Source of the DNA: Clostridiales bacterium
GTDB taxonomy: Bacteria > Bacillota > Clostridia > Oscillospirales > CAG-272
Direction: 5' to 3'
Assembly: GCA_012837425.1 (NCBI GenBank)
Contig: DURE01000040.1
Coordinates: 15,099 to 79,098, forward strand
DNA: 64,000 nucleotides
Shown: piece by piece, positions 6,081-41,220 of the stretch
How positions within the stretch are numbered: the stretch's first letter is position 1
Layout: each line of letters starts with the position of its first letter
Position numbers and translations under genes: made by a program
Notes under the pieces: generated by a model
What the model was told of the DNA's origin: nothing
The model's database searches: none
Seen by the model: the letters and a program-made list of their open reading frames with translations, nothing else

Positions 6081-6109
6081 TTGCAAAACAGACCGAAATG
6101 GTATACAAT
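6081..6109 (+). promoter_or_regulatory. Sigma-A type promoter for nifS-nifU
   Basis: TTGCAA (6081-6086), 17 nt, TACAAT (6104-6109). This supports ATG 6174 as the true nifS start. Confidence 0.5.
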
Positions 6110-6173
6110 ATTACGCATGTACAACATGATTCTGCAAAAAAAATATTGCCGCATGCCGCGCCACGGAGATAAT

Positions 6174-7376
6174 ATGCAGGACAACAACAAAAAAAGGATA
6201 TATGCCGATAATGCCGCCACAATGCCGGTGCTGCCCGAGGTTGTCGAGGCCATGCTACCGGTGTTTTATGATAATTGGGGGAACCCGTCAAGCCTGCACG
6301 AGGAGGGTCAACGCGCCGGCAGGGCGCTTGAAGCCGCCCGCACGACGGCGGCGGGGGTGCTCGGATGCCGTCCGGAGGAGCTTTATTTTACCTCCTGCGG
6401 TACCGAGTCGGACAACTGGGCAATAAAGGGTGCGGCATATGCCGCAAGAAATAAAAAGAATAAAATAATCACCAGTAAAATTGAGCATCATGCGGTGCTG
6501 AGCACCTGCGAGGCGCTTGAGAAAGACGGCTTTGAGGTCAAATACATCGGTGTCGACAAGGGCGGGCTGATTGACCTTGACGAGCTGCGCCAACAGGTCG
6601 ACGACAAAACCGCGCTTGTGGCTGTAATTATGGCAAACAACGAAATAGGAACCATTCAGCCGATTTCCGAGGTTGCCGAAATTGCTCATGGCGCCGGGGC
6701 GCTCTGTTTTACCGACGCGGTTCAGGCGGTCGGGAGCATACCGGTTGACCTCTCAAAACTGGGAGTCGATATGCTCTCGCTCTCGGGGCACAAGTTCGGA
6801 GCGCCCAAGGGTATCGGCGCACTTTATATCAAAAAGGGAGTCAGGATAAGGAATCTGCTGGAGGGCGGCGGGCATGAGAGAGGGCGGCGCAGCGGCACCG
6901 AAAACCTGCCCTATATCGTCGGACTTGCCCGCGCGCTTGAGATAGCCCGGGAACGAATGGGCGACATGAAGCGGGTTGCCGCCCTGCGCGACAGGCTTAT
7001 TGAGGGGCTGCTCGCCATACCGCACTCCTGCCTTAACGGCCATCCGACAGAGAGGCTGCCCGGAAACGTCAATGTTTCCTTTGAGTATGTCGAGGGCGAG
7101 GGCATGGTGCTCTGGCTCGACAAAATGGGCATCTCGGCCTCCACCGGTTCGGCCTGCTCGTCAAAATCGCTCGACCCGTCGCACGTGCTGCTCGCCATAG
7201 GGCTTCCGGTGGAGCTGGCCCACGGCTCGCTGAGGTTTTCGCTCTCACACGCAAACACCGAGGAGGATATAGAATACATCATCGCCGCAACCCGCGAGGT
7301 GGTGGAAAAGCTCAGGAAAATGAGCCCTATATATCCGGGGTATGAGGCAATACCCCCGATTCCTACAGAAAGGTAA
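6174..7376 (+). CDS. nifS: Cysteine desulfurase NifS (class V aminotransferase)
   Basis: IYADNAATMP, PLP-lysine motif SGHKFGAPKGIGALY, active-site loop STGSACSS. RBS GGAG precedes ATG 6174. Confidence 0.85.
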   Translation: MQDNNKKRIYADNAATMPVLPEVVEAMLPVFYDNWGNPSSLHEEGQRAGRALEAARTTAAGVLGCRPEELYFTSCGTESDNWAIKGAAYAARNKKNKIITSKIEHHAVLSTCEALEKDGFEVKYIGVDKGGLIDLDELRQQVDDKTALVAVIMANNEIGTIQPISEVAEIAHGAGALCFTDAVQAVGSIPVDLSKLGVDMLSLSGHKFGAPKGIGALYIKKGVRIRNLLEGGGHERGRRSGTENLPYIVGLARALEIARERMGDMKRVAALRDRLIEGLLAIPHSCLNGHPTERLPGNVNVSFEYVEGEGMVLWLDKMGISASTGSACSSKSLDPSHVLLAIGLPVELAHGSLRFSLSHANTEEDIEYIIAATREVVEKLRKMSPIYPGYEAIPPIPTER

Positions 7377-7386
7377 GGACAGGACA

Positions 7387-7827
7387 ATGGTTTACAGTGA
7401 AAAAGTAATGGACCACTTTATGAACCCGCGCAATGTCGGCGAGATACCCGACGCAGACGGTGTCGGCATGGTAGGAAACGCAAAGTGCGGCGATATAATG
7501 CAGATGTTCATAAAAGTCAGTGACAAGGGGATTATTGAGGATGTCAAATTCAAGACCTTCGGCTGCGGCGCGGCCATAGCTACCTCGTCGATGGCGACAG
7601 AGCTGGTTAAGGGCAAAACCATTGAGGAGGCGCTCAAGCTTACAAACGCTGCGGTGGTTGAGGCACTTGAGGGGCTGCCTCCGGTGAAAATCCACTGCTC
7701 GGTGCTGGCCGAGGAGGCAATAAAGGCGGCGATTACCGACTACTACAAGCGCCGGGGTATAGAAATGAATTTTGCACCCTCAGAACATAGCTGCTGTGAA
7801 CGCGATTGCGAACGCAGGAAAAATTAG
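7387..7827 (+). CDS. nifU: Fe-S cluster assembly scaffold protein NifU/IscU-like
   Basis: MVYSEKVMDHFMNPRNVG, GNAKCGDIM, FKTFGCGAAIA and IHCS conserved Cys motifs. RBS AAGGACAGGA. The gene lies immediately after nifS. Confidence 0.85.
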   Translation: MVYSEKVMDHFMNPRNVGEIPDADGVGMVGNAKCGDIMQMFIKVSDKGIIEDVKFKTFGCGAAIATSSMATELVKGKTIEEALKLTNAAVVEALEGLPPVKIHCSVLAEEAIKAAITDYYKRRGIEMNFAPSEHSCCERDCERRKN

Positions 7828-8285: not shown

Positions 8286-8314
8286 TTGACAAAAAAAAAA
8301 CGGTGTGGTATCAT
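8286..8314 (+). promoter_or_regulatory. Sigma-A type promoter for the large ABC/Yip1 locus, leaving a ~375-nt leader
   Basis: TTGACA (8286-8291), 17 nt, TATCAT (8309-8314). The first gene starts at 8697. Confidence 0.5.
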
Positions 8315-8696
8315 TACTTTGTGAATTCAGGACGATAGTGTATGGTTGCGCCGCTGCGCGGGCAAATTGTGCCGGTTTGATGTGAAATATCGCTTTTGCA
8401 CGACTTTGGCACCCAAATCCGATAGTCATTTTACACAAACAAATACAGACAGAATTGTATTGTGGTAAATGAATAAAACGACCGGTACACTCAAGCCAGG
8501 TCTTGCCGGGAAACCATTATGCTTGGCGACAGAATCATTGACATTCACCGGCCAAAGGCCAACGCTGCGGCACAGGACTGCGGCTTGCCGGCTGATGGCT
8601 GTTGATTTTTGATTGCCGGTTACAGCCGGAACTCAAGCCTCTGGTGCGGCACGGTAGAGCGCATCTCAAAATCATGGCAGGAGGAAGAACCCCATT

Positions 8697-11600
8697 ATGG
8701 AAAGAACGAAATTTACAAAGCTATGCGCTTTTCTCCTCGCATTGTCATTTCTGATACCCGGTGGCATGGTAGCCGCCGCGGCAGATGACACCGATTCAAG
8801 CTCGGTGACAGACAAGACGATTGACGATGTCAGGGAGCAGCTTAGTGCGATTTCGTATGATGAGTACAGCTCAAAGTATGCCAATGTTGGCAGAGCCGAG
8901 CGCGAAATCGTCATAAACGGTGTCGACTATGACAAGGAAAACACAACTGCCGCTGTTTATGCTGATACATATGACGGCGTGGAGGCGCTTTATACGCCCG
9001 ACACCGGCACGGTTTCCTGGAAGGTATCGATACCCGAGACTGCAAAGTACAGCATGATAGTAGAGTTTTATCCCGTCGTGGCCAAGTCCACTTCGGTTCA
9101 GCGCGTGCTGAGGATAGACGGCAGGATTCCCTTTGCCGAGTCGCGCTATATCACTATTTCAAAGAACTGGAAAAACGAATACCATGAGGGCGAGATAAAG
9201 GTCGGGAAGAATGAGAATCCGGACGATTATCTCGCTGCTGCAAGTGCAGCCGGAATAACCGCCAAGGCCGAGGCCAGGGAAGACGGGACCTACATACTTT
9301 ATTCGTTCCCCGAGTACTGGACGGCCGAGTCGTCAAAGCTGGTCGACGAAAACATAATACGATACTTCAGGCTGGATATCGACCGGAACGAAATACGCAA
9401 CACTATGTACCAGCAGCCCAAGTGGTCTGCCCTTGAGATGCGGGATATTGACGGCTTTTATCCCGAAAGCTTTGAATTTGTGTTTACCGCCGGCGAGCAT
9501 CAGATTTCGCTTGAGGCGGTTAACGAGCCTTTGGCTATAAAAGCCATAAGGCTTGTGCCCCATGAGGATTTGGTTCCCTATGAGGAATACAGAAGCCGCT
9601 ATGCAAACGAGCCCTACGGCACCGACAAAATCAAGATAGAGGGTGAATATACTTCGGCGATTTCCTCTCAGACCATTTACCCGGTCGAGGACAGAGCCGG
9701 CGCTATAAACTCGCCGACCGATACTTCAAGGACGGTTCTCAACACCATAGGCGGCGATAAATGGCAGACCTCGGGGCAGTGGGTTGAATACAGCTTCCGC
9801 CCGAGCACCGACGGCATATACCGGGTTGTGTTCAGGTTCAGGCAGAACATTCTTGACGGAATCTTTACCTCACGCGCAATGTATATCTACAGCGAGGGGC
9901 TCCAGGAGGGCGAGAAGGGCTATTACAACGGCATCCCCTTCAAGGAAGCTGCCGAGCTGGTCTTTAATTACTCTACAGACTGGCAGACCGGGTCGCTTCA
10001 GTACCCGATTAAGATTGAAGACGAAGAAGGCACCCTAAAAACCGAATATCGCGACATTGAGCTCTACTTCAAGGGCGGCGTGACCTATACGGTTAGATTC
10101 CAGGTCACGCTCGGAGCCATAGGAAGAATTGTGCGTCAGCTTAACGAGTCGCTGCTCTCGATAAACAACGACTATCTCTCGATTCTGAAGCTGACCGGCG
10201 CAAACCCCGACCCCTACCGCGATTACGGTTTTTACCGCATAATGCCGGATACCATAATAGACCTCAAGGTTCAGGCGCTTGTCCTTGAGAAAATTGCCGA
10301 CGAGCTTGCCTCAACCGCAGGAGTTAAGAGTACAAACGTCGCAACCCTTACCAAAATAGTCTGGCTGCTGCTCCGTATGAACGGTTCCGAGGACCAGGTT
10401 GCGCGCAACCTCAGCAACCTGAACAGCTATCTCGGAACGCTGGGTACGCTACTCAGCAACGTCAAGACCCAGCCGCTGCAGCTTGACTACCTGATAATCC
10501 AGTCGCCCGAAGAAAAGGTTCCGAAGGCAAAGCCGAACTTCTTTGAATCCTTCGCGCATGAAATTTCCAGCTTTATTATGAGCTTCATACGCAACTATGA
10601 CCGTATGGGAGCTACAGAGGCCTCACAGAGCAAGGACGCCATCGAGGTCTGGCTGGCCACTGGACGCGACCAGGCTCAGGTGGTCCGCAACCTCATCAAC
10701 AATGACTTTACGCCGCAGTTCGGACACCCGGTCAACCTGAAGCTGATTTCGGGCGCGACGCTTTTGCCCTCAATACTTGCGGGCAGGGGGCCGGATGTAT
10801 ACATAGGCCTTGGCGAGGACAATGTTATAAACTACGCAATACGCGGAGCCCTGATGAACGTCGAGAACTATGAGGGCTTCTATGATATTGCCATAAACGA
10901 AGAAACCCGCGAGTTCAACGAGGCAGCGATGCTGGTTCTCGGCATTTCCGACGCCGACGGTAATTACCATTATTATGGGCTTCCCGAAACGCAGCACTTC
11001 CCCATGATGTTCCTGCGAACCGATATCCTGTCCGACCTGGATATAGATATTCCGAGAACTTGGGACGACCTGCTTGAAGCCGTTCCGATACTTCAGGCAA
11101 ACAACATGCAGATAGGACTCAACTCGAGTCTTTCGCCCAACTACGGTGGCTCGGTTGCCAACGCTCCGCCTCCGGATTACAGAATATTCCTCTACCAGAT
11201 GGGCGGCACGCTTTTCGCTGATGACGGCATGAGAATAAATCTCGACTCGGATTTAGCACTCAAGGCCTTTGAGAAGATGTGCAACATGTTCACCATGTAT
11301 TCTTTCCCCTACAAATACGATTTTGCCAACCGCTTCAGGACCGGTGAGATGCCGATAGGCATATCTTCGTATACCAGCACGTATAACCTGCTTGTGGTTT
11401 ATGCTACTGAAATCAAGGGACTCTGGCAGTTCGTGCCGCTGCCCGGTTTTGAAGATGAAAACGGCAACATCGACAACACCACGGTTTCCACGGTGTCGGC
11501 TATAGTCATGATTGTCGGATGTGATAACGAGGAAGGCGCATGGGAGTTCATGAAATGGCATGCCGGCGCCGATTGCCAGAGCGCGTATGCCAATGAAATG

Positions 11601-12245
11601 GTTGCGATTCTCGGAGATTCGGCAAAGCACCCGACCGCCAACATCCACGCGCTCGAGAGCCTGCCCTGGACCACCGAGGAATACAATAACGTCAGCCTCC
11701 AGTTTAACAGACTCGCGTCGATTCCCAACTATCCCGGCTCCTACATAATCACCCGTTACGTCAAATTCGCATACCTGGATGCCTACAACGACAACAAGGA
11801 CCCGGTCGAAAGAATTCAGAACTATGTTCCGATTATCAACAAGGAGATAATCAAAAAGCGGCTCGAATTTGACCTTGAAGTGCTTGAGCTCGGACAGACT
11901 CTGGCCGAGAAGAGAATAGACCAGGTGTTGTGGCTCCTTGATAAGATTGAGGCATCGCTTTCATATTCCGCTGCATACGCCGAGGCAATACACGGAGTGC
12001 GCTATGCAATTGAGAGCGAAGAGCCTGCGGCAATGATTGTGTCGGCCGAAGCCATCACAAACATACTGAATACGCTTGACCCGACTGGCTCTATTGTTGA
12101 CAATGAGATAGACGCCGTCAAGAAGGCAAAGAACTGCTTTGCTTACGATGTGTACAAATATACCGATGATTTTGCAACCCTTATCTATTACACGGCAAAA
12201 TTTACAAACGAAGCAGGTAAGGCGCTTATTTCATACATACATTAA
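8697..12245 (+). CDS. Giant extracellular solute-binding protein (ABC, CUT1-like) with N-terminal CBM-like modules
   Basis: 1182 aa. Signal peptide MERTKFTKLCAFLLALSFLIPGGMVAAAADD with an AxA-type site and no lipobox. The N-terminal half is beta-rich and CBM-like (AKYSMIVEFYPV..., GQWVEYSFRPSTDGIYRVVFRF). The C-terminal half resembles family-1 SBPs (IEVWLATGRDQAQVVRNLINNDFTPQ..., ILAGRGPDVYIGLG). Confidence 0.7.
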   Translation: MERTKFTKLCAFLLALSFLIPGGMVAAAADDTDSSSVTDKTIDDVREQLSAISYDEYSSKYANVGRAEREIVINGVDYDKENTTAAVYADTYDGVEALYTPDTGTVSWKVSIPETAKYSMIVEFYPVVAKSTSVQRVLRIDGRIPFAESRYITISKNWKNEYHEGEIKVGKNENPDDYLAAASAAGITAKAEAREDGTYILYSFPEYWTAESSKLVDENIIRYFRLDIDRNEIRNTMYQQPKWSALEMRDIDGFYPESFEFVFTAGEHQISLEAVNEPLAIKAIRLVPHEDLVPYEEYRSRYANEPYGTDKIKIEGEYTSAISSQTIYPVEDRAGAINSPTDTSRTVLNTIGGDKWQTSGQWVEYSFRPSTDGIYRVVFRFRQNILDGIFTSRAMYIYSEGLQEGEKGYYNGIPFKEAAELVFNYSTDWQTGSLQYPIKIEDEEGTLKTEYRDIELYFKGGVTYTVRFQVTLGAIGRIVRQLNESLLSINNDYLSILKLTGANPDPYRDYGFYRIMPDTIIDLKVQALVLEKIADELASTAGVKSTNVATLTKIVWLLLRMNGSEDQVARNLSNLNSYLGTLGTLLSNVKTQPLQLDYLIIQSPEEKVPKAKPNFFESFAHEISSFIMSFIRNYDRMGATEASQSKDAIEVWLATGRDQAQVVRNLINNDFTPQFGHPVNLKLISGATLLPSILAGRGPDVYIGLGEDNVINYAIRGALMNVENYEGFYDIAINEETREFNEAAMLVLGISDADGNYHYYGLPETQHFPMMFLRTDILSDLDIDIPRTWDDLLEAVPILQANNMQIGLNSSLSPNYGGSVANAPPPDYRIFLYQMGGTLFADDGMRINLDSDLALKAFEKMCNMFTMYSFPYKYDFANRFRTGEMPIGISSYTSTYNLLVVYATEIKGLWQFVPLPGFEDENGNIDNTTVSTVSAIVMIVGCDNEEGAWEFMKWHAGADCQSAYANEMVAILGDSAKHPTANIHALESLPWTTEEYNNVSLQFNRLASIPNYPGSYIITRYVKFAYLDAYNDNKDPVERIQNYVPIINKEIIKKRLEFDLEVLELGQTLAEKRIDQVLWLLDKIEASLSYSAAYAEAIHGVRYAIESEEPAAMIVSAEAITNILNTLDPTGSIVDNEIDAVKKAKNCFAYDVYKYTDDFATLIYYTAKFTNEAGKALISYIH

Positions 12246-12289
12246 TTTTTCAATGAAATCAATGAAATCTATGTAAGGAGAGAGAACAC

Positions 12290-13237
12290 ATGTCGCAGAA
12301 AACGGCTGGAGTGCGAGCTGTAGCCCGTAAGGATATGACGCGCAGGCAGTGGATATGGAAAGAGATGAAGCGCAACAAGGTGGGCTATATCATGGTTGCG
12401 CCCTACATGATTCTTTTCACGATATTCACCGTCATACCCGTGCTGTTGTCAATGGTGATAAGCTTCACCGACTTCAACATGCTGCAGTGGCCGAATTTCG
12501 TATTCCTTGACAACTATATCAACCTGTTCCTCGATGACGACATTTTTCTTATAGCCGTTAAGAACACCTTCATTTTCGCGGCTATTGTGGGGCCGGCATC
12601 CTATCTGATGTCCTTCCTTGTCGCCTGGTTCATAAACGAGCTGCCGCCGAAAATCAGGGCCGTCGTCACGCTCATATTCTATGCGCCCTCAATTTCGGGT
12701 GAGGTCTACATGATTTGGAGGACACTCTTTTCGGGCGACTCGTACGGCTGGGTCAACGCGACACTGTTGCGGCTTGACATAATAACCAAGGAGATTCAGT
12801 TCTTTGAAGATAAAGACTGGGTTATGCCACTGTGTATTGTGGTTGCACTTTGGCTTTCGCTGGGCACCACCTTCCTGGCCTTCATCGCCGGCCTGCAGGG
12901 CGTGCGGCGTGAGCTTTACGAGGCCGGGGCGGTTGACGGTATCAGAAACCGCTGGCAGGAGTTGTGGTACATAACACTGCCCGAAATGAAGCCCCAGCTC
13001 ATGTTCGGAGCTATTATGTCGATTACCAGTTCGTTCGGGTTCGGCGCGGTTGTCACCAACCTTTGCGGCTACCCGTCGGTTGACTACGCGGCGCACACTA
13101 TTATGCACCACCTTGACGACTACGGGCACTTGCGGCTTGAAATCGGATATTCTTCGACGATAGCGGTTGTGCTTTTCGCAATAATGATTGGCGCAAACCT
13201 CTTGGTTTCGAAATTAATTTCAAAGGTGGGACGGTAA
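12290..13237 (+). CDS. Sugar ABC transporter permease (MalF-like)
   Basis: 315 aa with 6 TM helices and the EAA-loop region ELYEAGAVDGIRNRWQELWYITLPEMKP. RBS AAGGAGAG. Confidence 0.85.
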   Translation: MSQKTAGVRAVARKDMTRRQWIWKEMKRNKVGYIMVAPYMILFTIFTVIPVLLSMVISFTDFNMLQWPNFVFLDNYINLFLDDDIFLIAVKNTFIFAAIVGPASYLMSFLVAWFINELPPKIRAVVTLIFYAPSISGEVYMIWRTLFSGDSYGWVNATLLRLDIITKEIQFFEDKDWVMPLCIVVALWLSLGTTFLAFIAGLQGVRRELYEAGAVDGIRNRWQELWYITLPEMKPQLMFGAIMSITSSFGFGAVVTNLCGYPSVDYAAHTIMHHLDDYGHLRLEIGYSSTIAVVLFAIMIGANLLVSKLISKVGR

Positions 13238-13238
13238 T

Positions 13239-14111
13239 ATGGCAAAGCTTAGAACAAGAAAGCATAGAGTGGTTCTCAGCCGTTCGGCCGGCGGAGACAC
13301 CGGCATTACGATACTGCTGACATTTCTTGGGGCGTTTATGCTCCTGCCGATGCTCTATGCTATAATGCAGTCGCTAAAGCCCCTGGATGAACTTTGGAGG
13401 TTCCCCCCGAGATTCTATGTCACAAAACCCACCTTAAAGAATTTCAGGGACCTGTTCGTCCTGATGAATACGGCCTGGGTACCCTTTTCAAGGTATCTGT
13501 TCAACACCATGTTCACATCGATTGTAGGCACCACTGGGCACTTGTTTATCGCCTCGATGGCCGCGTATGCCATGGCGAAAATCCCCATGCCGGGCGGCAG
13601 AGCGATGTTCAGGACGGTGCGGATGTCGCTCATGTTCCATTCGACGGTAACCGCCGTGACCAGCTTCATTATAATGAGCGCCTTCGGGTGGATAGACACA
13701 TATCTTGCAATTATCTTTCCGGCGCTGGTCTTTACGCTCGGCCTTTACCTGATGAAGCAGTTCATGGAATCAAACGTTACTGATTCGGTGCTTGAGAGCG
13801 CCCGGATAGACGGCGCCTCGGAGTTCAGAATCTTCTGGGTCATTGCAATGCCGATGGTAAAACCCGCTTGGTTGACGCTTATCATCTACTGCTTCGAGAG
13901 GCTCTGGAACGCAGGGGTTTCGATTTATATACATTCAGAGCAGCTCAAATCCTTCAACTACGCTATTCACCAGATAATGGCGGGCGGAATCAAGCGTGCA
14001 GGAGCCGCCGCCGCCGCTACTGTTGTTATGATGGTTGTGCCTATTTCGGTGTTCGTTATTACGCAGTCGAACATCATTGAGACAATGGGCTCCAGCGGAA
14101 TGAAAGACTAA
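13239..14111 (+). CDS. Carbohydrate ABC transporter permease (MalG-like)
   Basis: 290 aa with the EAA loop SVLESARIDGASEFRIFWVIAMPMVKP. It starts immediately after the preceding permease gene. Confidence 0.85.
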   Translation: MAKLRTRKHRVVLSRSAGGDTGITILLTFLGAFMLLPMLYAIMQSLKPLDELWRFPPRFYVTKPTLKNFRDLFVLMNTAWVPFSRYLFNTMFTSIVGTTGHLFIASMAAYAMAKIPMPGGRAMFRTVRMSLMFHSTVTAVTSFIIMSAFGWIDTYLAIIFPALVFTLGLYLMKQFMESNVTDSVLESARIDGASEFRIFWVIAMPMVKPAWLTLIIYCFERLWNAGVSIYIHSEQLKSFNYAIHQIMAGGIKRAGAAAAATVVMMVVPISVFVITQSNIIETMGSSGMKD

Positions 14112-14128
14112 AGGGGGAGGTGAGAAAA

Positions 14129-16267
14129 ATGAAGAAAGCTGCCTCGATTCTGTGCCTTTTGTTTGTGCTTATCCTGCTCTTTTCAATTCCGATAAGCGCG
14201 GCAAAGCCCTATCAGACCTATACCTACAGCGCAGACCCCCCGAAGATGACCTACGCGCAGTATTCGCCCGACGCCTATACGCCGCTGATGACGGTTGACT
14301 CAACCTATATGGGGCTTGACGAGGCCATTTCCGACCCGCGGGATATTTTTGTCGACGACAGGATGAACGTATACATCGCCGACGCAAAGAACAACCGGAT
14401 AGTTGTGCTTGACCGCTACTACAAGCTAAAGTTCATTATCAAGGAGTTCATCAACGAATTCGGCATTGAAGACGAGTTCACGGCGCCTTCGGGCGTGTTT
14501 GTCACCAAGGATACCATCTATGTCTGCGACACCGATGCCAACCGGATTGTCACCTTTGACCGTGACGGCAATTACAAGAAGATAATCCCGCAGCCCGAGA
14601 GCAACCTGTTTGAAAACGATGCGGTCTACAAGCCTATAGCCGTCGCCGTCGACCAGTACGACAGAATCTATGTCGTTTCCTCGACCACATACGAGGGCAT
14701 TCTTGTCATGACATCGGACGGCGAGATGACCGGCTTTATAGGCGCTCAGGCGGTCACCATTTCAAAATGGGAGATTCTGTGGATGAGATTCCAGACCGCC
14801 GAGCAGAGGGCCCTGACCGCCTCCTTCATACCCACCGAGTTCAACAATATCACCATTACCCAGGATGGCTTCATCTACGCTACTATCGCGTCGATAGAGG
14901 ATTCTCAGGTCAGCAGCTTTATAAACGGCGGGAGCAGCAAATACTCGCCGGTTAAAATGCTCAACGCCGCCGGCGATGAAATTATGAGGCGGAACGGCTT
15001 TCAGGCGCCGGCCGGTGAAATCAGATTTGACAGAATGAACATGGAATCTATCACCGGACCCTCCAAACTGGTTGACGTTGCGGTGGGACCCGAGAAGACC
15101 TGGTCGATAATCGATGAAAAAAGAAGCAAGATATTCACCTATGACTTTGACGGCAACCTCCTTTTCGCCTTCGGAAACGACGGCTCGCAGCTCGGAAATA
15201 TCAAGACCATAAGGGCCGTTGCATATCAGGGCGACGCGCTCCTGGTGCTTGACAGCAACTTTAACAGCTTTACGGTCTTTGAGAGGACCGAGTACGGCAA
15301 TATCCTGATTCGTGCACTGGCCGATGAAAACGCGCGCCGCTACAGCAAGGCGGTTGAGGGCTGGACCGAGATACTTAAGCGAAACATCAACTTCGACACC
15401 GCCTATATCGGTATCGGCAAAGCGCTCTACAGGAGCGGCGAGTACGATAAGGCTATGGCCTACTACAGGGCGGCCTATGACACCACAAACTACTCGGAGG
15501 CCTACAAGGAGGTCCGCAAGGCCTGGATTTCCAGGTTCGTGCTGCTCATACCGGTAATTATTATCGTCATTGTTGTGGCATGTACCAAATTCATGCAGTA
15601 TGCGTCCAAGGTCAACAGGCGCGCGGCAACCGCCGGGGGCAAACGCACCTTCAAGGAGGAGCTGCTCTACGCTTTCCATGTAATCTTTCATCCCTTTGAT
15701 GGCTACTGGGACTTAAAGTATGAAAAACGTGGCTCAATGCGCGCGGCCGTGGTGATAATTCTGGCTACCATAATGACATATTACTATGACTCTATAGGCT
15801 CAGGCTATATAGTAAACCAATACGGCTTTTACAATTCGATAATGTCGGTTGCAATCAACAGCGTGCTGGCGCCTCTGTTCCTGTTTGCAACCGCGAACTG
15901 GTGCCTTACAACCCTGTTTGACGGCGAGGGAAGTTTCAAGAATGTTGTAGTAGCAATCTCATATGCACTTATCCCGTTGATTCTCACTCAGATTCCGGTC
16001 ACAATCATGTCGAACTTGGTGACAGTCGAGGAGGTAAACATCCTGAATCTGGTTACGACTATAGGAGTTATCTGGACCGGCATTTTGGTGTTCCTCGGCA
16101 TGATGGTAACCCACGATTATTCACTTTTCAAAGGCGTCACAACAACCATCGGAACGATTATCGGCATGGTGTTTATAATGTTCTTCGGAATATTGTTTGC
16201 GACCCTCCTTGGAAAGCTTGTGAGCTTCGTCACCAACATCGTCCTTGAAATCGGTTACCGAATATGA
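14129..16267 (+). CDS. Signal peptide + NHL-repeat beta-propeller + TPR + C-terminal Yip1-type polytopic membrane domain protein
   Basis: RBS GGGGGAGG, then ATG 14129. NHL-like repeats: RDIFVDDRMNVYIADAKNNRIVVLD, PSGVFVTKDTIYVCDTDANRIVTFD, PIAVAVDQYDRIYVVS. TPR-like segment GKALYRSGEYDKAMAYYRAAYD. About five C-terminal TM helices resemble Yip1 family proteins. Confidence 0.65.
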   Translation: MKKAASILCLLFVLILLFSIPISAAKPYQTYTYSADPPKMTYAQYSPDAYTPLMTVDSTYMGLDEAISDPRDIFVDDRMNVYIADAKNNRIVVLDRYYKLKFIIKEFINEFGIEDEFTAPSGVFVTKDTIYVCDTDANRIVTFDRDGNYKKIIPQPESNLFENDAVYKPIAVAVDQYDRIYVVSSTTYEGILVMTSDGEMTGFIGAQAVTISKWEILWMRFQTAEQRALTASFIPTEFNNITITQDGFIYATIASIEDSQVSSFINGGSSKYSPVKMLNAAGDEIMRRNGFQAPAGEIRFDRMNMESITGPSKLVDVAVGPEKTWSIIDEKRSKIFTYDFDGNLLFAFGNDGSQLGNIKTIRAVAYQGDALLVLDSNFNSFTVFERTEYGNILIRALADENARRYSKAVEGWTEILKRNINFDTAYIGIGKALYRSGEYDKAMAYYRAAYDTTNYSEAYKEVRKAWISRFVLLIPVIIIVIVVACTKFMQYASKVNRRAATAGGKRTFKEELLYAFHVIFHPFDGYWDLKYEKRGSMRAAVVIILATIMTYYYDSIGSGYIVNQYGFYNSIMSVAINSVLAPLFLFATANWCLTTLFDGEGSFKNVVVAISYALIPLILTQIPVTIMSNLVTVEEVNILNLVTTIGVIWTGILVFLGMMVTHDYSLFKGVTTTIGTIIGMVFIMFFGILFATLLGKLVSFVTNIVLEIGYRI

Positions 16268-16293
16268 GTTGCGGAAAGAGAGGTATTAATATA

Positions 16294-19200
16294 ATGAATA
16301 AATTTATCAAAACAATATCCCTGCTCTTGACTGCAATAACGCTGCTTGGCAGCCTTTCGTGGTTGTCGGTAATCGGAGTATCTGCTACGTCCTCGAAAGA
16401 AAAGGATGAAGGTCCTACCATCGAGGAAATTCTTGAGGGATATTTGACCAAAAAGTACGATACCCCCGAGGCGAAGCTCTCCACAATGGAACTCAGGCTC
16501 GAAAAAGACGGGTACGAGCTCTGGGTCGACAAGCAGAGCGGTGAAGTTGCGACGGTAGATCAGGCAACCGGCCAGATATTGTTTTCAAATCCTTATGATA
16601 TTGCCACCTCACACGGCTCTGCCTCCACAAAAGAACAGATTATGTCGCAGATTCATGTCAGGTATATTGACAATGACACCGAAAAATCCTTCTTCAGCTT
16701 TGTCGAGGCGGCCTACAGAGGGCAGATTAAGGTAAAGAACATCAAAAACGGCATCCGTGTCGAGTATACGCTCGGCCGCGAGGAAACCAGAATGCTGGTT
16801 CCCAGGCTTATCAGAAGAGACCGTTTCGAAACCTTAATCCGCGATGTTGCCGCGGCCGAGCTCGGAGAGGAAAACTTCACCTTCAAGAAACTGGATGCTT
16901 ACTATTCGTTAAAAGACCCTGACGAGCTCGTTTCAGACCGGGCAAGGGCGGAGCTGCATGCAGCATTTCCGATTACCAAGAGGATGGCGGTTTATATCTT
17001 TGACCCCACGGCGTCTGAGACCGAAATTCGCAAGATTGAGGAAATAATCAAGACATACTGTCCGCTGTATACATACGAGATGCTTGATGAAGACCATGAA
17101 ATTACCGAATTTGAGGGTACAGACCGCGCGCCCGCACTCTTCAAAATGGCACTTGAGTACACGCTTGACGAGTACGGCGTGAGCGTCAGGCTGCCGGCAA
17201 ACGGCATACGTTTTGACGAATCTCAATATAAGCTTGAGTATATTAGCATACTTCCGTACATGGGCGCCGGCGCAAGCTATTCGGCGGCCGACAAAACGAA
17301 AACCCAGACCGGCTATACCTTTTTCCCGGACGGCTCTGGCTCGCTTTTCAGGTTTGAGAAGCTTGCGCCCCTGCCGACCACAACCATAGCCGGCAAGGTT
17401 TATGGCCCCGACTACGCTTACCAGACGCTTACCGGCTCCAACCAGGAGATAATAAGATACCCCGCATTCGGCATTGTATCGAATGATATTATTTCACAGT
17501 ATGTCCGAGCCGAAATTGACGGCAAGATTTCGCTTGTGCTGCAGGATGTAATGGTTGACAACGGGTATCTTGCCGTGATAGAGGAGGGCGACGCGCTGAC
17601 CGATATTTACACCAACCATGCGGCACAGCTGCATAAATACAATTACATGGAGATGCGCGTCTATCCCCGGCCCAAAGACTCCTATAATATGAGAGACGCT
17701 ATCTCTGTCGGTATGAACACGACCTGGACGGTTGTCTCCTCCAGAAAATACGTGGGCAGCTACAAAGTCAGATATTTCATGCTGACCGATGACAATATCG
17801 CCAAGGAAAAGGGCTTTACGAAATATTACGAGGCCTCATGGCTCGGTATGGCGACCGCATACCGCGAGTATCTCGCCAAAACCGGCGTACTCGAGCGGCT
17901 TTCCGATGATGATGTCAAGCCCGATATTCCGCTTTACATCGAGACCTTCGGAGCAATTGAGACTATCGAGAAGATACTCTCAATTCCGGTGAGCACAATG
18001 GTTCCTCTGACCTCCTTTGAGGATATAAGGACGATGTACGACGAGCTGTCGGCAGACGGCATATCAAATATCAACTTCAAGCTCACCGGCTATGCCAACG
18101 GAGGCATGTACTCGTCAATTCCTTACAATCTGAAATGGGAGAAAGCAGTCGGCGGCAAGGATGGCTTCGAGGAGCTTATCGGGTATGCTGAGGAGAAGGA
18201 CTTCGGGGTTTATCCCGACTTCGACTTTGCCTATGCCTGGAGTGGGCTCAACGGGCTGTTTGACGGGCTCAGCCAAAAGCAGCATTACGCAAAGTCTATT
18301 GACAACAGGTACGCCAACCGGCGCGAATACAGCGCGCTCTATCAGACCTTCACGCAAAGGTTCGCATTTTCTTTCAGCATGGTTATCTCGCCAGCTTATT
18401 TCAGTCATTTCTATGAAAAGCTGTCCGACAACTATAAAAAGAGTGGCGCAACCTCTATTTCGGTGTCGACGCTCGGCTCATCTCTCAACTCGGATTTTGA
18501 CGAAAAAGAACCCTACAACCGCGAGGACTCCAAATTCTTCACGATTGAGGCCTTCAAATATCTGGACAGCAATTACGACAGCATTATGACCAGCGGCGGA
18601 AATGCCTATACCTGGAAATATGTCGACCACATACTTGATGTGTCGCTCGACTCGAGCCGCTATGTGAGGTCAAGCAACTCTGTTCCCTTTATCGGAACGG
18701 TGCTGCACGGCTCGGTTCAGTTTGCGGGCACCCCGCTCAATATGGAGGGCAATATCGGCTACGCAAAGCTGAGGATAATCGAGAACGGCGCCGCACCCTA
18801 CTTCATACTGTCATATCAGAATCAGACCCTTCTCAAGGAAGACAGGTATTTCAGCAAATACTATTCGGTGCGTTACGATATTTGGCATCGTGAGCTTGTG
18901 GACATCTACAACGAGCTCAACAGTCTGCTTGCAGATGTTCAGACAAAACTGATTATCGACCACAAATTCTTCATTGGCGAGCGTATTCCCGATGAGGACG
19001 AACTGCAGGCCGACATCCTTGAGGAGATGAACAGAATAGGCAAGGAGCATGCCGACGCCGAGGCCGAGGCCGAAGTCAAGGCAATCAAAGCCATACTTGA
19101 TGCCAGAATGACCGCCAAAAACAATGCCGCCAAGACCCAGGAGCTTCTTGCCACCGCAATCAAGGCGGCCGACGATGCCGAAGCGTCGATAACGGCTATC

Positions 19201-20616
19201 GAGGCGGCGCTGCTGGCAATACCCGCGGCCGAGGCCGCAATTGAGGCTGCCATAGAGGCCGAAGCCGAAGCGCTTGAGGCTTATAACGCCGCCAAGGCAG
19301 TAGCCGAAGAGGCCAAAGCGGCATACCAAAATGCCCTGTCCAGCGGCGACACCAACCTGATAAATACTACAAGAGATGCATATACGGCAGCTGCCGCAGC
19401 CGAAACTTCGGCAAGAGCCGCCCACACCAACGCGCAAAATGCCATAAAGACGGCACAGAATAATTTAACCGCCGCCAACAAGAACCTTGATGATGTTCTC
19501 AAGGCCGGCACCGACACGGTGGCTGCTGCAGCGGCGGCGGCTTCAGAGGCAGCGGTTCTCGCGGCCGACGCACGCGTTGCAGCCAGCTTTGTGAACACCG
19601 TCGAAAGCGCGACCGCCCAGATAAAACAGTCGGCTCTTGACTACGCGACTCAGGCCGAAAACGCCGCAGCCGAAGCCCTGACATATGCTACAAAGGCCAA
19701 AAACAACGCAGCCGCGGCAATAGCCATCAGCTCGGATAAATCGGTGGCAACCCTGATAAACACCGCAAAAACCACTGCAGCATCGGTCGATACAAGAGTG
19801 GCCGACGTTGCAATCAAGTATGAGGCCCTGCAAAACGCAATAATAAAGAGTGAGGAAGCCATCGTTGCTGAGGCCGAGGCGCTGCGGATTTATGAAGAAG
19901 CGCTGGCGGTTTATGAGGCGGCCAAAGCTGCGGCAGCCCTTTCGACGGCTACCCAGGCCGATAAAGAGGCAGCAACCGAAGCCGGCACCGCGATGAACAT
20001 GGCAAAGGCCGATTATATCACCGCGCAGTCAAATGCCACCAAAGCATCCAACTCGGTCAATCAAGCATTGACAGCCCTACGCATTTCGCTCCAGAGAGCG
20101 CTTGAAACCAAAAACACAGTGCTTGCAACCGCCGATTCGGTGGCAAAAGCCCTGAGTGATGCCTCGGATGCCATCGCCCTGCTCAACACACTTGAAGGTG
20201 TCAGCGATACCATCAAGACAGCGGCTACCGACGCATACCTCAGTGCCCAGGAGTTGTCTGTCGAAGTGAACATATTTGTCAATGCCGCAAATGCCAAATA
20301 CAACGAGGCGGCCGAGCTTGTCAAGGATTATGTGGTTATCGAGGAGCAGCCGGCCGACGACACTCCCACAACCCCGACACCGACGACGCCTGACCCCGTG
20401 CCCGGCGAGACCGAAAGCGAAGAATACGTATACACCAAGTATACCAATGACAACGGCAACATTGTTATGGTGACTTATGGCGACCAGGACAATGCCGGCT
20501 ACTACCTTGCGTACAAGACATTCGTCCTCAACTATAACTTCTTCGACGTGACGGTTGTTATCGAAGGAGTCAGATACACCATACCCGCCTCAGGATATGT
20601 TGCATTCTATCATTGA
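16294..20616 (+). CDS. Giant secreted protein: uncharacterised N-terminal ~880-aa domain (resembles proteins I recall as DUF5696), Ala-rich helical stalk, small C-terminal beta domain
   Basis: RBS GAGAGG, then ATG 16294. Signal/anchor MNKFIKTISLLLTAITLLGSLSWLSVIGVSA. There is no match to any catalytic motif I can name. The DUF5696 assignment is from memory and unverified. Confidence 0.5.
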   Translation: MNKFIKTISLLLTAITLLGSLSWLSVIGVSATSSKEKDEGPTIEEILEGYLTKKYDTPEAKLSTMELRLEKDGYELWVDKQSGEVATVDQATGQILFSNPYDIATSHGSASTKEQIMSQIHVRYIDNDTEKSFFSFVEAAYRGQIKVKNIKNGIRVEYTLGREETRMLVPRLIRRDRFETLIRDVAAAELGEENFTFKKLDAYYSLKDPDELVSDRARAELHAAFPITKRMAVYIFDPTASETEIRKIEEIIKTYCPLYTYEMLDEDHEITEFEGTDRAPALFKMALEYTLDEYGVSVRLPANGIRFDESQYKLEYISILPYMGAGASYSAADKTKTQTGYTFFPDGSGSLFRFEKLAPLPTTTIAGKVYGPDYAYQTLTGSNQEIIRYPAFGIVSNDIISQYVRAEIDGKISLVLQDVMVDNGYLAVIEEGDALTDIYTNHAAQLHKYNYMEMRVYPRPKDSYNMRDAISVGMNTTWTVVSSRKYVGSYKVRYFMLTDDNIAKEKGFTKYYEASWLGMATAYREYLAKTGVLERLSDDDVKPDIPLYIETFGAIETIEKILSIPVSTMVPLTSFEDIRTMYDELSADGISNINFKLTGYANGGMYSSIPYNLKWEKAVGGKDGFEELIGYAEEKDFGVYPDFDFAYAWSGLNGLFDGLSQKQHYAKSIDNRYANRREYSALYQTFTQRFAFSFSMVISPAYFSHFYEKLSDNYKKSGATSISVSTLGSSLNSDFDEKEPYNREDSKFFTIEAFKYLDSNYDSIMTSGGNAYTWKYVDHILDVSLDSSRYVRSSNSVPFIGTVLHGSVQFAGTPLNMEGNIGYAKLRIIENGAAPYFILSYQNQTLLKEDRYFSKYYSVRYDIWHRELVDIYNELNSLLADVQTKLIIDHKFFIGERIPDEDELQADILEEMNRIGKEHADAEAEAEVKAIKAILDARMTAKNNAAKTQELLATAIKAADDAEASITAIEAALLAIPAAEAAIEAAIEAEAEALEAYNAAKAVAEEAKAAYQNALSSGDTNLINTTRDAYTAAAAAETSARAAHTNAQNAIKTAQNNLTAANKNLDDVLKAGTDTVAAAAAAASEAAVLAADARVAASFVNTVESATAQIKQSALDYATQAENAAAEALTYATKAKNNAAAAIAISSDKSVATLINTAKTTAASVDTRVADVAIKYEALQNAIIKSEEAIVAEAEALRIYEEALAVYEAAKAAAALSTATQADKEAATEAGTAMNMAKADYITAQSNATKASNSVNQALTALRISLQRALETKNTVLATADSVAKALSDASDAIALLNTLEGVSDTIKTAATDAYLSAQELSVEVNIFVNAANAKYNEAAELVKDYVVIEEQPADDTPTTPTPTTPDPVPGETESEEYVYTKYTNDNGNIVMVTYGDQDNAGYYLAYKTFVLNYNFFDVTVVIEGVRYTIPASGYVAFYH
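19050..20330 (+). other. Ala-rich (A/E/K/T/N) low-complexity helical region inside the giant secreted protein
   Basis: About 427 codons dominated by GCN codons (AEAEAEVKAIKAILDA..., AAEAAIEAAIEAEAEALEAYNAAKAVAEEAKAAY...). The region produces many spurious antisense ORFs in the track. Confidence 0.8.
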
Positions 20617-20634
20617 TGAAAGAGAGGTACAGTA

Positions 20635-21618
20635 ATGACAAGCGAAGTAAAACTTAAGAATACCGTCAGTAACAAGGGTGCCTCGAAAAAAAGACGCCAC
20701 GCCTCTCTTGACAAGCGCAAGGCGCGGGCGGGCTGGCTGTTTGTGTTGCCTTTTGTGGTCGGTTTTCTGATTATCTATCTGCCGGTCATATTCGACTCCA
20801 TAAGGCTCAGTTTTTACCACATCAAGGTCCTTCCGGGCGGGGGATATACCCTCGACCCGGTCGGATGGGGCAACTACAAAGAGGCACTTTTCGTAGACCC
20901 CGACTATGTTCAGACCCTGCTGACAGGCATAAGACAGCTGATATTTGACATTCCCGCGATTATCATGTTCTCGCTGTTTATGGCGGTTCTGCTGAACCAG
21001 AAGATGGCGGGACGGGCAGTCTTCCGCGCAATATTCTTTGTTCCGGTTATTCTGGCTACAGGAATTATGGCGTCGATTGATTCCCAGAACATTCTTTCCG
21101 AGTACATGGAAGAGGAAGAAGGAATCAATACCGGCACAGGGCAGAGTGCTGCCGCCGAGATAGTCACGGCGATGGACATATCAAACCTGTTCCGAAACAT
21201 GAGGTTTTTCAGCGGTATGGAGGAGTATGTCGCGACAGCCATCAATAACATCTACGACATAGTCAACCGTTCGGGCGTGCAGATGCTGATATTCCTTGCT
21301 GGCCTTCAGTCTATTGACCCGAAGATTTACGAGTCCTGCCAGATAGACGGCGCGACCAGCTGGGAGACCTTCTGGAAGATTACCTTCCCGATGATAAGTC
21401 CGATGATTCTGGTCAATGCGGTTTACACGATAATAGACTCATTTACGGCGGGCTCAAATCAGGTGATGCAGTTCATCTCAAGGGTTTATCAAAGACCCGA
21501 CGGCAACGTGGTGAGCGCAGCAATGTCGTGGATGTACTTCCTGATAGTCATGTTGATAATAGCAGCCGTTGCCGGCCTCATGTCAGCATATGTGTTCTAT
21601 CAGAGACGCGATACATAA
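20635..21618 (+). CDS. Sugar ABC transporter permease (second pair, MalF-like)
   Basis: 327 aa with 6 TM helices and the EAA loop IYESCQIDGATSWETFWKITFPMISP. RBS GAGAGG. Confidence 0.85.
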   Translation: MTSEVKLKNTVSNKGASKKRRHASLDKRKARAGWLFVLPFVVGFLIIYLPVIFDSIRLSFYHIKVLPGGGYTLDPVGWGNYKEALFVDPDYVQTLLTGIRQLIFDIPAIIMFSLFMAVLLNQKMAGRAVFRAIFFVPVILATGIMASIDSQNILSEYMEEEEGINTGTGQSAAAEIVTAMDISNLFRNMRFFSGMEEYVATAINNIYDIVNRSGVQMLIFLAGLQSIDPKIYESCQIDGATSWETFWKITFPMISPMILVNAVYTIIDSFTAGSNQVMQFISRVYQRPDGNVVSAAMSWMYFLIVMLIIAAVAGLMSAYVFYQRRDT

Positions 21619-21630
21619 GGAGGCAGAAAG

Positions 21631-22719
21631 ATGAATTCTCAGAACATCGAAAAACCGAGAGTCCTAAAGGAGACCAAAAACAAGATAAGGGTCGAATTTG
21701 AGAGAACTCCTCTGCTTGAAAGACTCAAGGTAAAGTTCATCTCGATGCACTTCCTTGTGAGTCTTATATGGTACATCTTCCGGCTGATTCTTCTGATAGG
21801 AATCTCATATATCATACTTTATCCCTTCTATACCAAGATAGCCGGCTCGTTCATGATTCCCGACGATTTCGTCAATGTGACGGTTCGGCTCATTCCGACG
21901 CAACTCACGCTCAATACCTACAAGCAGATTTTTATTGAGATGGAATACTCCAAGGCGTTTGTCAACACTCTTTTGCTGTCGGGTACAGCCGCCATAATAC
22001 AGACCTTTGTCTGCTGCTTTATTGGGTACGGGCTTGCCAAATTCAGGTTCAAGGGCGGGAGGATCCTCTTGCTGCTGGTTATTTTAACCCTGATTGTACC
22101 TCACCAGACACTCCAGCTCTCGCTTTTCATGAACTTCAGATACTTTGACATTTTCGGCATACTGAAATTTTTGAGCGGCGGCGCCACGGTAGGAGTGGCG
22201 TGGATTGACAATATCCTCTCGAAGATAAAGATATTGCCTTTCCCTTACGGACTGACGCTGACCAACACCTTCTGGCCGATGATACTGCTCTCGGCCACCG
22301 GCCTTGCATTCAAGAACGGACTTTACATCTTTATGATGCGCCAGTTCTTCCGCGGAGTGCCCGATGAGCTTGAGGAATCGGCATATATTGACGGCTCGGG
22401 AGTGGTCAGAACATTTCTTACAATCATAATCCCCCTGTCGATACCCATGATGATTACCGTATTTCTCTTTGCCTTCTCGTGGCAGTGGACGGACTCTTTC
22501 TATACCAACCTTTTCTTCACTACAACGCAGACCATACTGATGCCGAAAATCGTCGGTATCCCAAGCACTCTCGAGACCAACTTCGCAGGGCAGAACCTCT
22601 ACTACGCCGCAATCCGCAATACCTGCGGACTGATGATTATCGCGCCGCTGGTAGTGCTCTTCCTGTTCTGCCAGAAGTTCCTTATCCAGGGCATCGAGCG
22701 CTCGGGTATCACAGGCTAA
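21631..22719 (+). CDS. Carbohydrate ABC transporter permease (second pair, MalG-like, enlarged)
   Basis: 362 aa with the EAA loop ELEESAYIDGSGVVRTFLTIIIPLSIP. RBS AAGGAGG. Confidence 0.85.
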   Translation: MNSQNIEKPRVLKETKNKIRVEFERTPLLERLKVKFISMHFLVSLIWYIFRLILLIGISYIILYPFYTKIAGSFMIPDDFVNVTVRLIPTQLTLNTYKQIFIEMEYSKAFVNTLLLSGTAAIIQTFVCCFIGYGLAKFRFKGGRILLLLVILTLIVPHQTLQLSLFMNFRYFDIFGILKFLSGGATVGVAWIDNILSKIKILPFPYGLTLTNTFWPMILLSATGLAFKNGLYIFMMRQFFRGVPDELEESAYIDGSGVVRTFLTIIIPLSIPMMITVFLFAFSWQWTDSFYTNLFFTTTQTILMPKIVGIPSTLETNFAGQNLYYAAIRNTCGLMIIAPLVVLFLFCQKFLIQGIERSGITG

Positions 22720-22737
22720 TAACAAAACAAACAAAAC

Positions 22738-22778
22738 AAAGGGGAAAGCTTCGCATGAAGCGTTCCCCTTTTGTTGTT
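22738..22778 (+). terminator. Rho-independent terminator ending the ABC/Yip1 locus
   Basis: AAAGGGGAAAGCTTC-gcat-GAAGCGTTCCCCTTTT followed by GTTGTT. Confidence 0.75.
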
Positions 22779-38435: not shown

Positions 38436-38465
38436 TTGCAATTATATACAATTAGATGTTATAAT
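38436..38465 (+). promoter_or_regulatory. Sigma-A type promoter for the MoxR operon
   Basis: TTGCAA (38436-38441), 18 nt, TATAAT (38460-38465). A leader hairpin lies at 38487-38508. Confidence 0.5.
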
Positions 38466-39551: not shown

Positions 39552-39558
39552 GCCTGAT

Positions 39559-41208: not shown

Positions 41209-41220
41209 GGCTGAAGCAAG

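Follow-up and report, generated by a model that had tools for sequence, protein, structure and literature searches.

A seven-gene cassette with two permease pairs, a Yip1-family protein and a DUF5696 protein, probably for glycan import in Clostridia and Bacilli

Why should an operon that encodes a single giant solute-binding protein (SBP) also encode two complete ATP-binding cassette (ABC) permease pairs, with a Yip1-family membrane protein and a large protein of the Pfam family DUF5696 set between them? The question is raised by seven genes in a stretch of 64,000 nucleotides (nt) from contig DURE01000040.1 of a Clostridiales bacterium, referred to here as the window, which an earlier note on this DNA had described as encoding a conserved but uncharacterised machine for the capture and import of extracellular polymers. 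We find that the seven genes form one operon and that this operon belongs to a cassette inherited as one unit across Clostridia and Bacilli. We favour the view, with a probability of roughly 55 %, that it serves the capture, processing and import of glycans at the cell surface of Gram-positive bacteria; the machine is conserved and uncharacterised as claimed, and its capture of a polymer stays inferred.

The seven open reading frames (ORFs) are closely packed and co-directional on the + strand between positions 8697 and 22719, in the order SBP, permeases P1 and P2, NHL/TPR/Yip1 protein, DUF5696 protein, permeases P3 and P4 (Table 1). Each is preceded by a Shine-Dalgarno sequence, and the gaps between them measure 44, 1, 8, 26 (or -4), 18 and 12 nt. 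The promoter, at 8286-8314, is the top-scoring promoter-like site (11/12) between positions 6000 and 25000, and it is base-for-base the same, together with the AT-rich stretch 5' of it, in two relatives whose proteins are ~86 % identical (loci L004 and L072). At the other end, none of 200 shuffled sequences folds as well as the terminator hairpin, directly after which stands UUUUGUUGUU. The earlier description of the locus, with its promoter at 8286 and its terminator at 22738, is confirmed in its essentials. No ABC ATPase, recognized by an LSGGQ or Walker A signature, is encoded within the 64 kb, which agrees with the earlier note; absence of the ATPase from the locus is usual for CUT1 systems that use a shared ATPase. 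The window holds only one SBP-like ORF. The operon has ROK, NifS and NifU genes as upstream neighbours and alaS downstream, and no regulator gene flanks it. The leader between promoter and SBP gene is ~80 % conserved among three relatives and has GC-rich hairpin-like segments; it matches no Rfam family, and a consensus search found no catabolite-responsive element (cre) in it. It may be a regulatory RNA that replaces the absent regulator gene in the clade to which the window belongs.

The distribution of the cassette was examined through its DUF5696 protein. A search with the DUF5696 region returned at least 1961 matches, and phmmer against 1.84 billion representatives returned 4061 clusters (50 % identity) at E<=1e-3, 1369 of them at E<=1e-30; the relatives inspected are the best 150 of the 4061 clusters. 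A scan of species-representative genomes gave at least 477 relatives, all of them uncultured gut or digester Clostridia. When the seven window proteins were compared by tblastn with 83 loci, the order SBP>P1>P2>YIP>DUF>P3>P4 on one strand was found in every locus that was long enough, the exceptions being contig ends, and it also held at 41 % DUF5696 identity. In most of these loci the identity to the window proteins is 70-82 % for P1 and P2, 51-78 % for P3 and P4, 51-72 % for the NHL/TPR/Yip1 protein, 48-71 % for DUF5696 and 43-69 % for the SBP; in the closest relatives, L004 and L072, it is 83-95 %. The flanks change from locus to locus (alaS and spoIIIA, enolase and pur genes, or UvrD/AddB), so that the cassette itself is the moving unit. 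It follows from this gene-neighbourhood comparison, in which every adequately long locus had the giant SBP, the Yip1 gene and the two pairs of permeases, that chance insertion does not account for the Yip1 gene and that the permease pairs are not independent neighbours, two possibilities that the earlier note had raised against itself. Window-clade loci have a single SBP-like ORF even when 10 kb to either side is included, and the regulator and recognised carbohydrate-active enzyme (CAZyme) of a Gram-positive polysaccharide utilization locus (PUL) are absent from the window and from L001-L003. In two different genomic settings the genes shortly upstream of the cassette are for Fe-S cluster assembly, namely NifS/NifU in the window (6081-7827) and SufC/SufBD in L002 (1-1467), which may be a coincidence.

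The second complete permease pair proposed earlier is certainly present. All four permeases match BPD_transp_1 and have EAA motifs that can be read in their translations, so the MalF plus MalG heterodimer of a CUT1 importer occurs twice, as P1P2 and as P3P4; the SBP domain and the permeases are members of the CUT1 class. P3 has an extracytoplasmic loop of ~70 amino acids (aa) and P4 an N-terminal extension. Within the window P1 and P3 are 24 % identical and P2 and P4 23 %. In BLASTP comparisons between clades, P1 is 56 % identical to P1 of Butyrivibrio and 44 % to that of Paenibacillus, P2 58 % and 34 % to P2 of distant loci, and P3 43 % to P3 of Butyrivibrio and 34 % to that of Paenibacillus; P4 is orthologous to P4 of distant loci, and cross-pair scores fall far below the position-wise ones. 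This position-by-position orthology implies that both pairs are ancestral and, given the low identity between the pairs, that the two-pair layout was in place before the cassette spread among Clostridia and Bacilli. A recent duplication of one permease pair is ruled out by the same two observations, the orthology extending across classes.

Cultured species carry the cassette too. Comparison with plasmids by tblastn located it on pNP243 of Butyrivibrio fibrisolvens (26 % DUF5696 identity) and on a replicon of Paenibacillus cellulosilyticus (24 %). On both, the RefSeq annotation runs extracellular solute-binding protein (977 or 986 aa), two permeases, NHL/YIP1, DUF5696 and two permeases, the fourth position being a single fused 719-aa 'YIP1 family protein' in P. 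cellulosilyticus and an NHL repeat protein plus a YIP1 family protein in B. fibrisolvens; loci annotated as 'YIP1 family protein' and 'DUF5696 domain-containing protein', to which the earlier note had pointed, therefore exist, and in the same gene order. The first gene of the P. cellulosilyticus operon is ugpC, for a UgpC/MsmK-type ATPase, which fits the suggestion that the permeases draw on a shared ATPase. Additional contexts came from a search seeded with the Butyrivibrio DUF5696 protein, and at 24-26 % DUF5696 identity the same order and position-wise orthology are found in Butyrivibrio, Acetatifactor, Roseburia, Paenibacillus and Cohnella; start and stop codons overlap between cassette genes in relatives.

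The surroundings of the distant loci are informative about function. In Acetatifactor and on contig L090 a lipoprotein of glycoside hydrolase (GH) family GH43 and one or two conventional SBPs stand beside the cassette, with GH35, GH42 and LacI genes additionally on L090 and a histidine kinase upstream in Acetatifactor; Roseburia has LacI, an intracellular GH53, a conventional SBP and an 800-aa GH53 lipoprotein, and P. alkalitolerans, P. catalpae and Cohnella have LacI, a conventional SBP and an intracellular GH26 and/or GH113. A regulator and a recognised CAZyme are thus present in Lachnospiraceae and Paenibacillaceae cassette loci, and the statements that the locus has neither regulator nor glycanase hold for the window clade and fail in relatives, where LacI or a histidine kinase with response regulator, and GH genes, adjoin the cassette. 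The small GH26, GH113, GH53, GH35 and GH42 enzymes of the relatives have no signal peptides and should therefore act on imported oligosaccharides. As far as gene content can tell, this context of sugar-operon-type regulators and intracellular hydrolases shows that the cassette serves oligosaccharide uptake. The enzyme sets to which it is tied are those for beta-1,4-galactan, beta-mannan or arabinogalactan, so its specificity probably differs between clades; paired with sets for different glycans, it would be a generic engine with specificity in its own variable parts, and it looks like a generic glycan-import module.

The giant SBP has a MalE-like SBP_bac_1/8 fold, as a CUT1 importer should, and much besides. 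The Pfam SBP_bac_1 match (1.4e-19) is confined to aa 676-957, and SBP_bac_1/8 together span aa 676-966. In an AlphaFold2 (AF2) model with a predicted local distance difference test score (pLDDT) of 78, a hydrophobic helix (aa 9-27) is followed by beta-sandwich I (aa ~70-290), beta-sandwich II (aa ~310-470), four long helices (aa 473-590), the SBP fold (aa ~595-1030) and a C-terminal helical bundle (aa 1036-1181). Foldseek matches the SBP fold to the oligosaccharide SBPs 5ysf, 9xf5, 3k01 and 5f7v with target-normalised template-modelling (TM) scores of 0.70-0.78. In the model the two beta-sandwiches look like carbohydrate-binding modules (CBMs). Among 32 homologues, CBM_35 occurs in 6 and Golvesin_C in 12; the extensions of the window protein give only a weak Golvesin_C match in Pfam at E<=10, and no NCBIfam model matches the protein. 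We considered whether it is a lipoprotein and rejected this, since a lipobox is missing from every orthologue, whereas the lipobox Cys is present in all conventional SBPs of related loci (L086-L093). What keeps the giant SBP at the surface must consequently be an anchor that is not cleaved off, or a partner protein. The dedicated giant SBPs range from 965 to 1182 aa across cassettes, and in BLASTP across clades the giant SBP matches giant SBPs only.

The DUF5696 protein is a member of Pfam DUF5696 (PF18952; 458 bits against a gathering cut-off of 25.6) and is not assignable to GH129, GH101 or GH31. The giant secreted protein of the earlier note exists, at 1440 rather than 1441 aa when read from the ATG at 16294; the alternative ATG at 16264 was rejected, as it has no ribosome-binding site, whereas 16294 has one and yields the database protein P0001. 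An N-terminal membrane anchor or signal, present in all members, is followed by an alpha/beta domain, a beta-sandwich, a (beta/alpha)8 barrel (nt ~17839-18960), an Ala-rich coiled coil (nt ~19039-20388), a Pro/Thr linker and C-terminal beta strands (nt ~20449-20613). Sequence searches link it to no GH. Against the Protein Data Bank (PDB), a phmmer single-sequence search and an hmmsearch profile search gave only low-complexity coiled-coil matches; Pfam at E<=10 gave no GH family for the core, the N-terminal region or the C-terminal half; no NCBIfam model matched; and alignment of the DUF5696 profile with the GH31 enzyme YihQ of Escherichia coli by hhalign was collinear and not significant (E 0.4-0.9). 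The predicted structure is more telling. The AF2 model of aa 40-960 (pLDDT 77.5, predicted TM score 0.73) has the N-terminal beta-sandwich and (beta/alpha)8 barrel architecture of GH129, GH101, GH31 and GH36, and its top Foldseek matches in the PDB are the GH129 structures 5opq (E 3.3e-19) and 5wzr (NagBb, 2.5e-16), then GH101 (~1e-11), GH31 (YihQ ~1e-9) and GH36, the last two at 1e-9 to 1e-8; these GH matches have probability 1.00 and target-normalised TM scores of ~0.6 at identities of 9-11 %. We conclude that the modelled core fold resembles that of the GH129/GH101/GH31/GH36 alpha-glycosidases. The earlier statement that the locus encodes no known enzyme therefore holds in that the protein is no routine GH and no GH sequence family matches it, and does not extend to its predicted fold.

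A DUF5696 active site is plausible on this model. In 100 members from both clades, D346, D373, D734, R743, N770, H805, N816 and E830 (1440-aa numbering) are essentially invariant; D346 and D373 lie in the beta-sandwich, in PDGSG and YGxD motifs, and D734 lies in an SDF motif after barrel strand 4 and is conserved in 98 of 100 diverse members. D734, D778 and D786 are each at least 97 % conserved in the window clade, Asp778 and Asp786 in that clade only and not in the clade of Butyrivibrio and Paenibacillus (clade B). Asp778 has a GH129-like spacing from D734 and falls opposite the YihQ acid/base residue in the non-significant hhalign alignment, which sets YihQ Asp405 opposite a Ser/Thr and not opposite Asp734. 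The coiled coil is an insertion of ~450 aa (aa ~916-1365, nt 19039-20388; 30 % Ala). It separates the last strand near the barrel from the conserved strands of the C-terminus and is thus probably a long antiparallel stalk. Its length varies, DUF5696 homologues having 933-2545 aa in total, and it is absent from the 757-870-aa relatives in Butyrivibrio and Paenibacillus; the giant size of the window protein is owed to this clade-specific insertion.

The fourth gene encodes a signal peptide, a beta-propeller (aa ~60-390), TPR repeats (aa ~399-462), a transmembrane helix (aa 470-488) and a Yip1 domain (PF04893, aa 519-689) with five hydrophobic segments, which scores 55.9 bits against a cut-off of 28.6 and covers profile positions 1-170 of 173. 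Its sequence matches in the PDB are NHL propellers, including that of the PknD sensor (1rwi), and consensus TPRs. The transmembrane helix is followed by a conserved cytoplasmic motif, FHVIFHPFDGYWDLKYE. In alignment A5 this motif, written FHVIxHPFDGFWDLKxE (window 15617-15700), stands where the Yip1 domain starts and is near-identical from Clostridia to Paenibacillus; several polar positions of the Yip1 helices (N, H, Y, E, R) are kept as well. The conserved motif and residues suggest that the domain does more than anchor the protein passively. The gene is split into an NHL gene and a Yip1 gene in Butyrivibrio, Roseburia and some Paenibacillus, with the break just past the transmembrane helix.

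Table 1. Features of the seven-gene operon, with positions in the window
Feature	Position	Strand	Product or length	Score or database match
Sigma-70-type promoter, TTGACA-17-TATCAT, TG extension	8286..8314	+		11/12
Leader, 5' of SBP gene	8315..8696	+	~380 nt	
Giant SBP	8697..12245	+	1182 aa	Pfam SBP_bac_1/SBP_bac_8
Permease P1, MalF/UgpA type, EAA loop	12290..13237	+	315 aa	BPD_transp_1; weak UgpA/MalF NCBIfam
Permease P2, MalG/UgpE type, EAA loop	13239..14111	+	290 aa	BPD_transp_1; GlcU/UgpE/MalG matches
NHL beta-propeller/TPR/transmembrane/Yip1 protein	14120..16267	+	715 aa	Pfam Yip1 6.5e-15, NHL, TPR_16
DUF5696 protein	16294..20616 (alternative ATG 16264)	+	1440 aa	Pfam DUF5696 6.9e-137
Permease P3, MalF/UgpA type, EAA loop	20635..21618	+	327 aa	BPD_transp_1 5.7e-11
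Permease P4, MalG/UgpE type, EAA loop	21631..22719	+	362 aa	BPD_transp_1; UgpE/MalG matches
Intrinsic terminator hairpin, then U-rich tract	22738..22775	+		dG -23.2 kcal/mol, z -4.15

How might these parts work together? In the scheme that we favour, the giant SBP would hold a glycan at the cell surface through its CBM-like domains and pass oligosaccharides to one of the permease pairs, for which its neighbour P1P2 is the simplest choice. DUF5696 would trim or debranch the captured glycan, with Asp734 as candidate nucleophile and Asp778 as candidate acid/base, and P3P4 would import a second product; in the cultured relatives of clade B, P3P4 is probably served by the adjacent conventional lipoprotein SBPs. 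A shared UgpC/MsmK-type ATPase encoded elsewhere in the genome would energise the permeases, and the NHL-TPR-Yip1 protein may organise the parts into a complex, by analogy with YknW of YknXYZ. One can go further and suppose that the seven proteins form a single membrane supercomplex, in which the NHL-TPR-Yip1 protein ties two ABC translocators to the GH-fold ectoenzyme DUF5696, and DUF5696 or the single giant SBP feeds P3P4 directly, with no SBP of its own. We think this distinctly unlikely; if true, the cassette would encode a dual-channel type I ABC importer coupled to an enzyme, and such substrate delivery has not been described for the class.

Several observations weigh against the scheme of capture, processing and import. 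The pairing of the SBP with P1P2 comes from gene adjacency only, and the window clade has a single SBP against two permease pairs; it also has no regulator or other GH nearby and has housekeeping genes for flanks. The GH-like assignment of DUF5696 comes from a predicted structure at 9-11 % identity, and no sequence method links the protein to a GH family. The candidate nucleophile Asp734 lies ~10 residues past strand 4, in a loop with a pLDDT of ~58, and the GH31/GH36-type acid/base positions vary in the Butyrivibrio/Paenibacillus clade. Finally, the same invariant DUF5696 residues occur in loci tied to chemically different beta-glycans, which is a poor fit to a substrate-specific alpha-glycosidase.

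Some of these points raise the question of whether the central module is an enzyme at all. DUF5696 could instead be a GH-fold platform for binding or docking glycans, with the NHL-TM-Yip1 protein (TM, the transmembrane helix) as a sensor or gate that couples glycan state to both transporters through its cytoplasmic motif, and hydrolysis left to other enzymes. The varying canonical acid/base positions of clade B and the retention of the invariant set across mannan, galactan and arabinogalactan loci would suit such a role, and so would the layout of NHL propeller, transmembrane helix and inner domain, which mirrors the PknD sensor, the strong conservation of FHVIxHPFDGFWDLKxE and of the polar Yip1-helix residues, and the need of a giant SBP without lipid anchor for a protein tether. 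We nevertheless hold it to be unlikely: an Asp that is ~98 % conserved stands ~10 residues past strand 4 of the model, near the position of the GH31/GH129 nucleophile, two further Asp are invariant, all of D734, D778 and D786 reach at least 97 % in the window clade, and the top structural matches of DUF5696 are all active enzymes. A different substrate is proposed if the cassette is taken to recycle or remodel a glycopolymer of the cell's own envelope, DUF5696 cleaving a common self polymer and the transporters recovering the fragments. Such a task would agree with the residue set being independent of the neighbouring glycanases, with the presence of the cassette in at least 477 species-level genomes of the window clade, where it lies amid housekeeping genes (NifS/NifU, alaS, spoIIIA, suf, pur) without regulator or other GH, and with a coiled-coil stalk long enough that it could span the wall. 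Cultured relatives, though, keep their cassettes in classical inducible sugar loci, with LacI or a histidine kinase and response regulator and with intracellular enzymes for plant oligosaccharides, and the SBP resembles importers of dietary-glycan oligosaccharides, which makes recycling quite improbable in our judgement.

The matches of the SBP to the cycloalternan-binding Lmo0181 (5f7v) and to a cycloisomaltooligosaccharide-binding protein (9xf5), and the existence of GH31 transglycosylases within the fold class of DUF5696, could suggest that DUF5696 is a transglycosylase. It would turn a public polysaccharide into a private oligosaccharide (a cyclic one, for instance) of which this transporter is the sole importer; the cycloalternan system of Listeria and the cycloisomaltooligosaccharide systems are examples of such a strategy. 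These two matches are, however, no better than many other matches to CUT1 SBPs, the neighbouring enzymes of relatives are directed at beta-mannan, beta-galactan or arabinogalactan and not at alpha-glucans, and we found no evidence specific to a transglycosylase, so that we consider it very unlikely. Barely credible is the notion that two unrelated ABC transporters and some unrelated genes merely lie side by side. It can appeal to the 23-24 % identity between P1 and P3 and between P2 and P4, and to internal promoters, which are possible on sequence alone; it has to contend with a gene order that stays identical from Clostridia to Bacilli, in 83 + 9 loci, while the flanks change, with orthology position by position, with gaps of 1-44 nt and overlapping start and stop codons in relatives, and with a single conserved promoter and a single terminator. 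We accordingly retain glycan capture, processing and import by one operon as the preferred account.

Elsewhere in the window, what appears to be one operon at 38421-45000 has genes for a MoxR-type AAA+ ATPase (376 aa), a 567-aa protein without Pfam match and a transglutaminase-like protein of 1259 aa. A 915-aa ORF on the - strand (48876-51623), which matches no Pfam family at E<=1e-4, adjoins a tRNA gene at 48728-48801, and positions 454-1920 encode a fusion of LPG_synthase_C (MprF C-terminal-like) with a GNAT acetyltransferase that lacks the membrane part of MprF.

The carriers of the cassette include the gut and rumen fibre degraders Roseburia, Butyrivibrio and Acetatifactor, many uncultured Clostridia, and soil Paenibacillaceae. 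If our account is right, DUF5696 is a new GH-like family, distantly related to GH129, GH101 and GH31, a Yip1-family protein has its first role in a bacterial nutrient importer, and the need of a sugar importer for two translocators is explained; the annotation of Gram-positive glycan utilization loci and models of oligosaccharide uptake by gut Firmicutes would change with it. Since cultured carriers are associated with known substrates, namely galactan, mannan and arabinogalactan, the account is directly testable. Our literature search found no paper that mentions DUF5696, and nothing relevant on PF18952, on YIP1 with ABC permeases or on Yip1/NHL proteins in Roseburia or Paenibacillus; we found no described system that has an obligatory second permease pair, a non-lipidated SBP with CBM-like domains, a Yip1/NHL component or an embedded GH-fold protein.

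Known systems nonetheless resemble the cassette part by part. With CUT1 importers (TC 3.A.1.1) it shares an SBP_bac_1-type SBP, a MalF/MalG-type heterodimer with EAA loops and an ATPase that is often encoded elsewhere. It differs from them in that there are always two different permease heterodimers per operon, with one SBP for both pairs in the window clade, that the SBP is a non-lipoprotein of 965-1182 aa with CBM-like domains and a helical stalk, and that the NHL-Yip1 and DUF5696 proteins are obligatory and fixed between the permease pairs. A Gram-positive PUL combines a transporter and a regulator with one or more degrading enzymes at a single locus, and the loci of the relatives, with their GH genes and LacI or two-component regulators, are like the PULs of Roseburia and Eubacterium.

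For the DUF5696 core the best structural matches are GH129 (NagBb, ZgGH129) and GH101 (EngBF, SpGH101), extracellular enzymes that release sugar for CUT1 uptake, as by the bifidobacterial galacto-N-biose/lacto-N-biose (GNB/LNB) ABC importer. Both have an N-terminal beta-sandwich and a partly broken (beta/alpha)8 barrel (PMC8106489). DUF5696 stands apart from them in its 9-11 % identity without a sequence-level link, in catalytic residues that are not confidently matched, in its extra N-terminal alpha/beta domain and, in the window clade, ~450-aa coiled-coil insertion, and in the embedding of its gene in a transporter operon. GH31 and GH36 (clan GH-D), exemplified by E. coli YihQ, have the same fold class (Foldseek E 1e-9 to 1e-8), and the SDF(D)E motif that follows strand 4 is similar to ADFGE, the nucleophile motif of YihQ, although the hhalign alignment is non-significant and places a DUF5696 Ser/Thr opposite YihQ Asp405.

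The NHL-TPR-Yip1 protein has two partial counterparts. In Bacillus subtilis the operon of the YknWXYZ ABC transporter includes the gene for the Yip1-family protein YknW, which reportedly modulates how the complex assembles (PMC4887032). Both systems thus have the gene of a Yip1-family membrane protein inside an ABC transporter operon, but YknYZ, which works with a membrane fusion protein, is an exporter of the MacB type and no type I importer, and YknW lacks the NHL/TPR ectodomain. PknD (PDB 1rwi) likewise has an extracellular six-bladed NHL propeller, one transmembrane helix and an inner module, which in PknD is a kinase and in the cassette protein is the Yip1 membrane domain.

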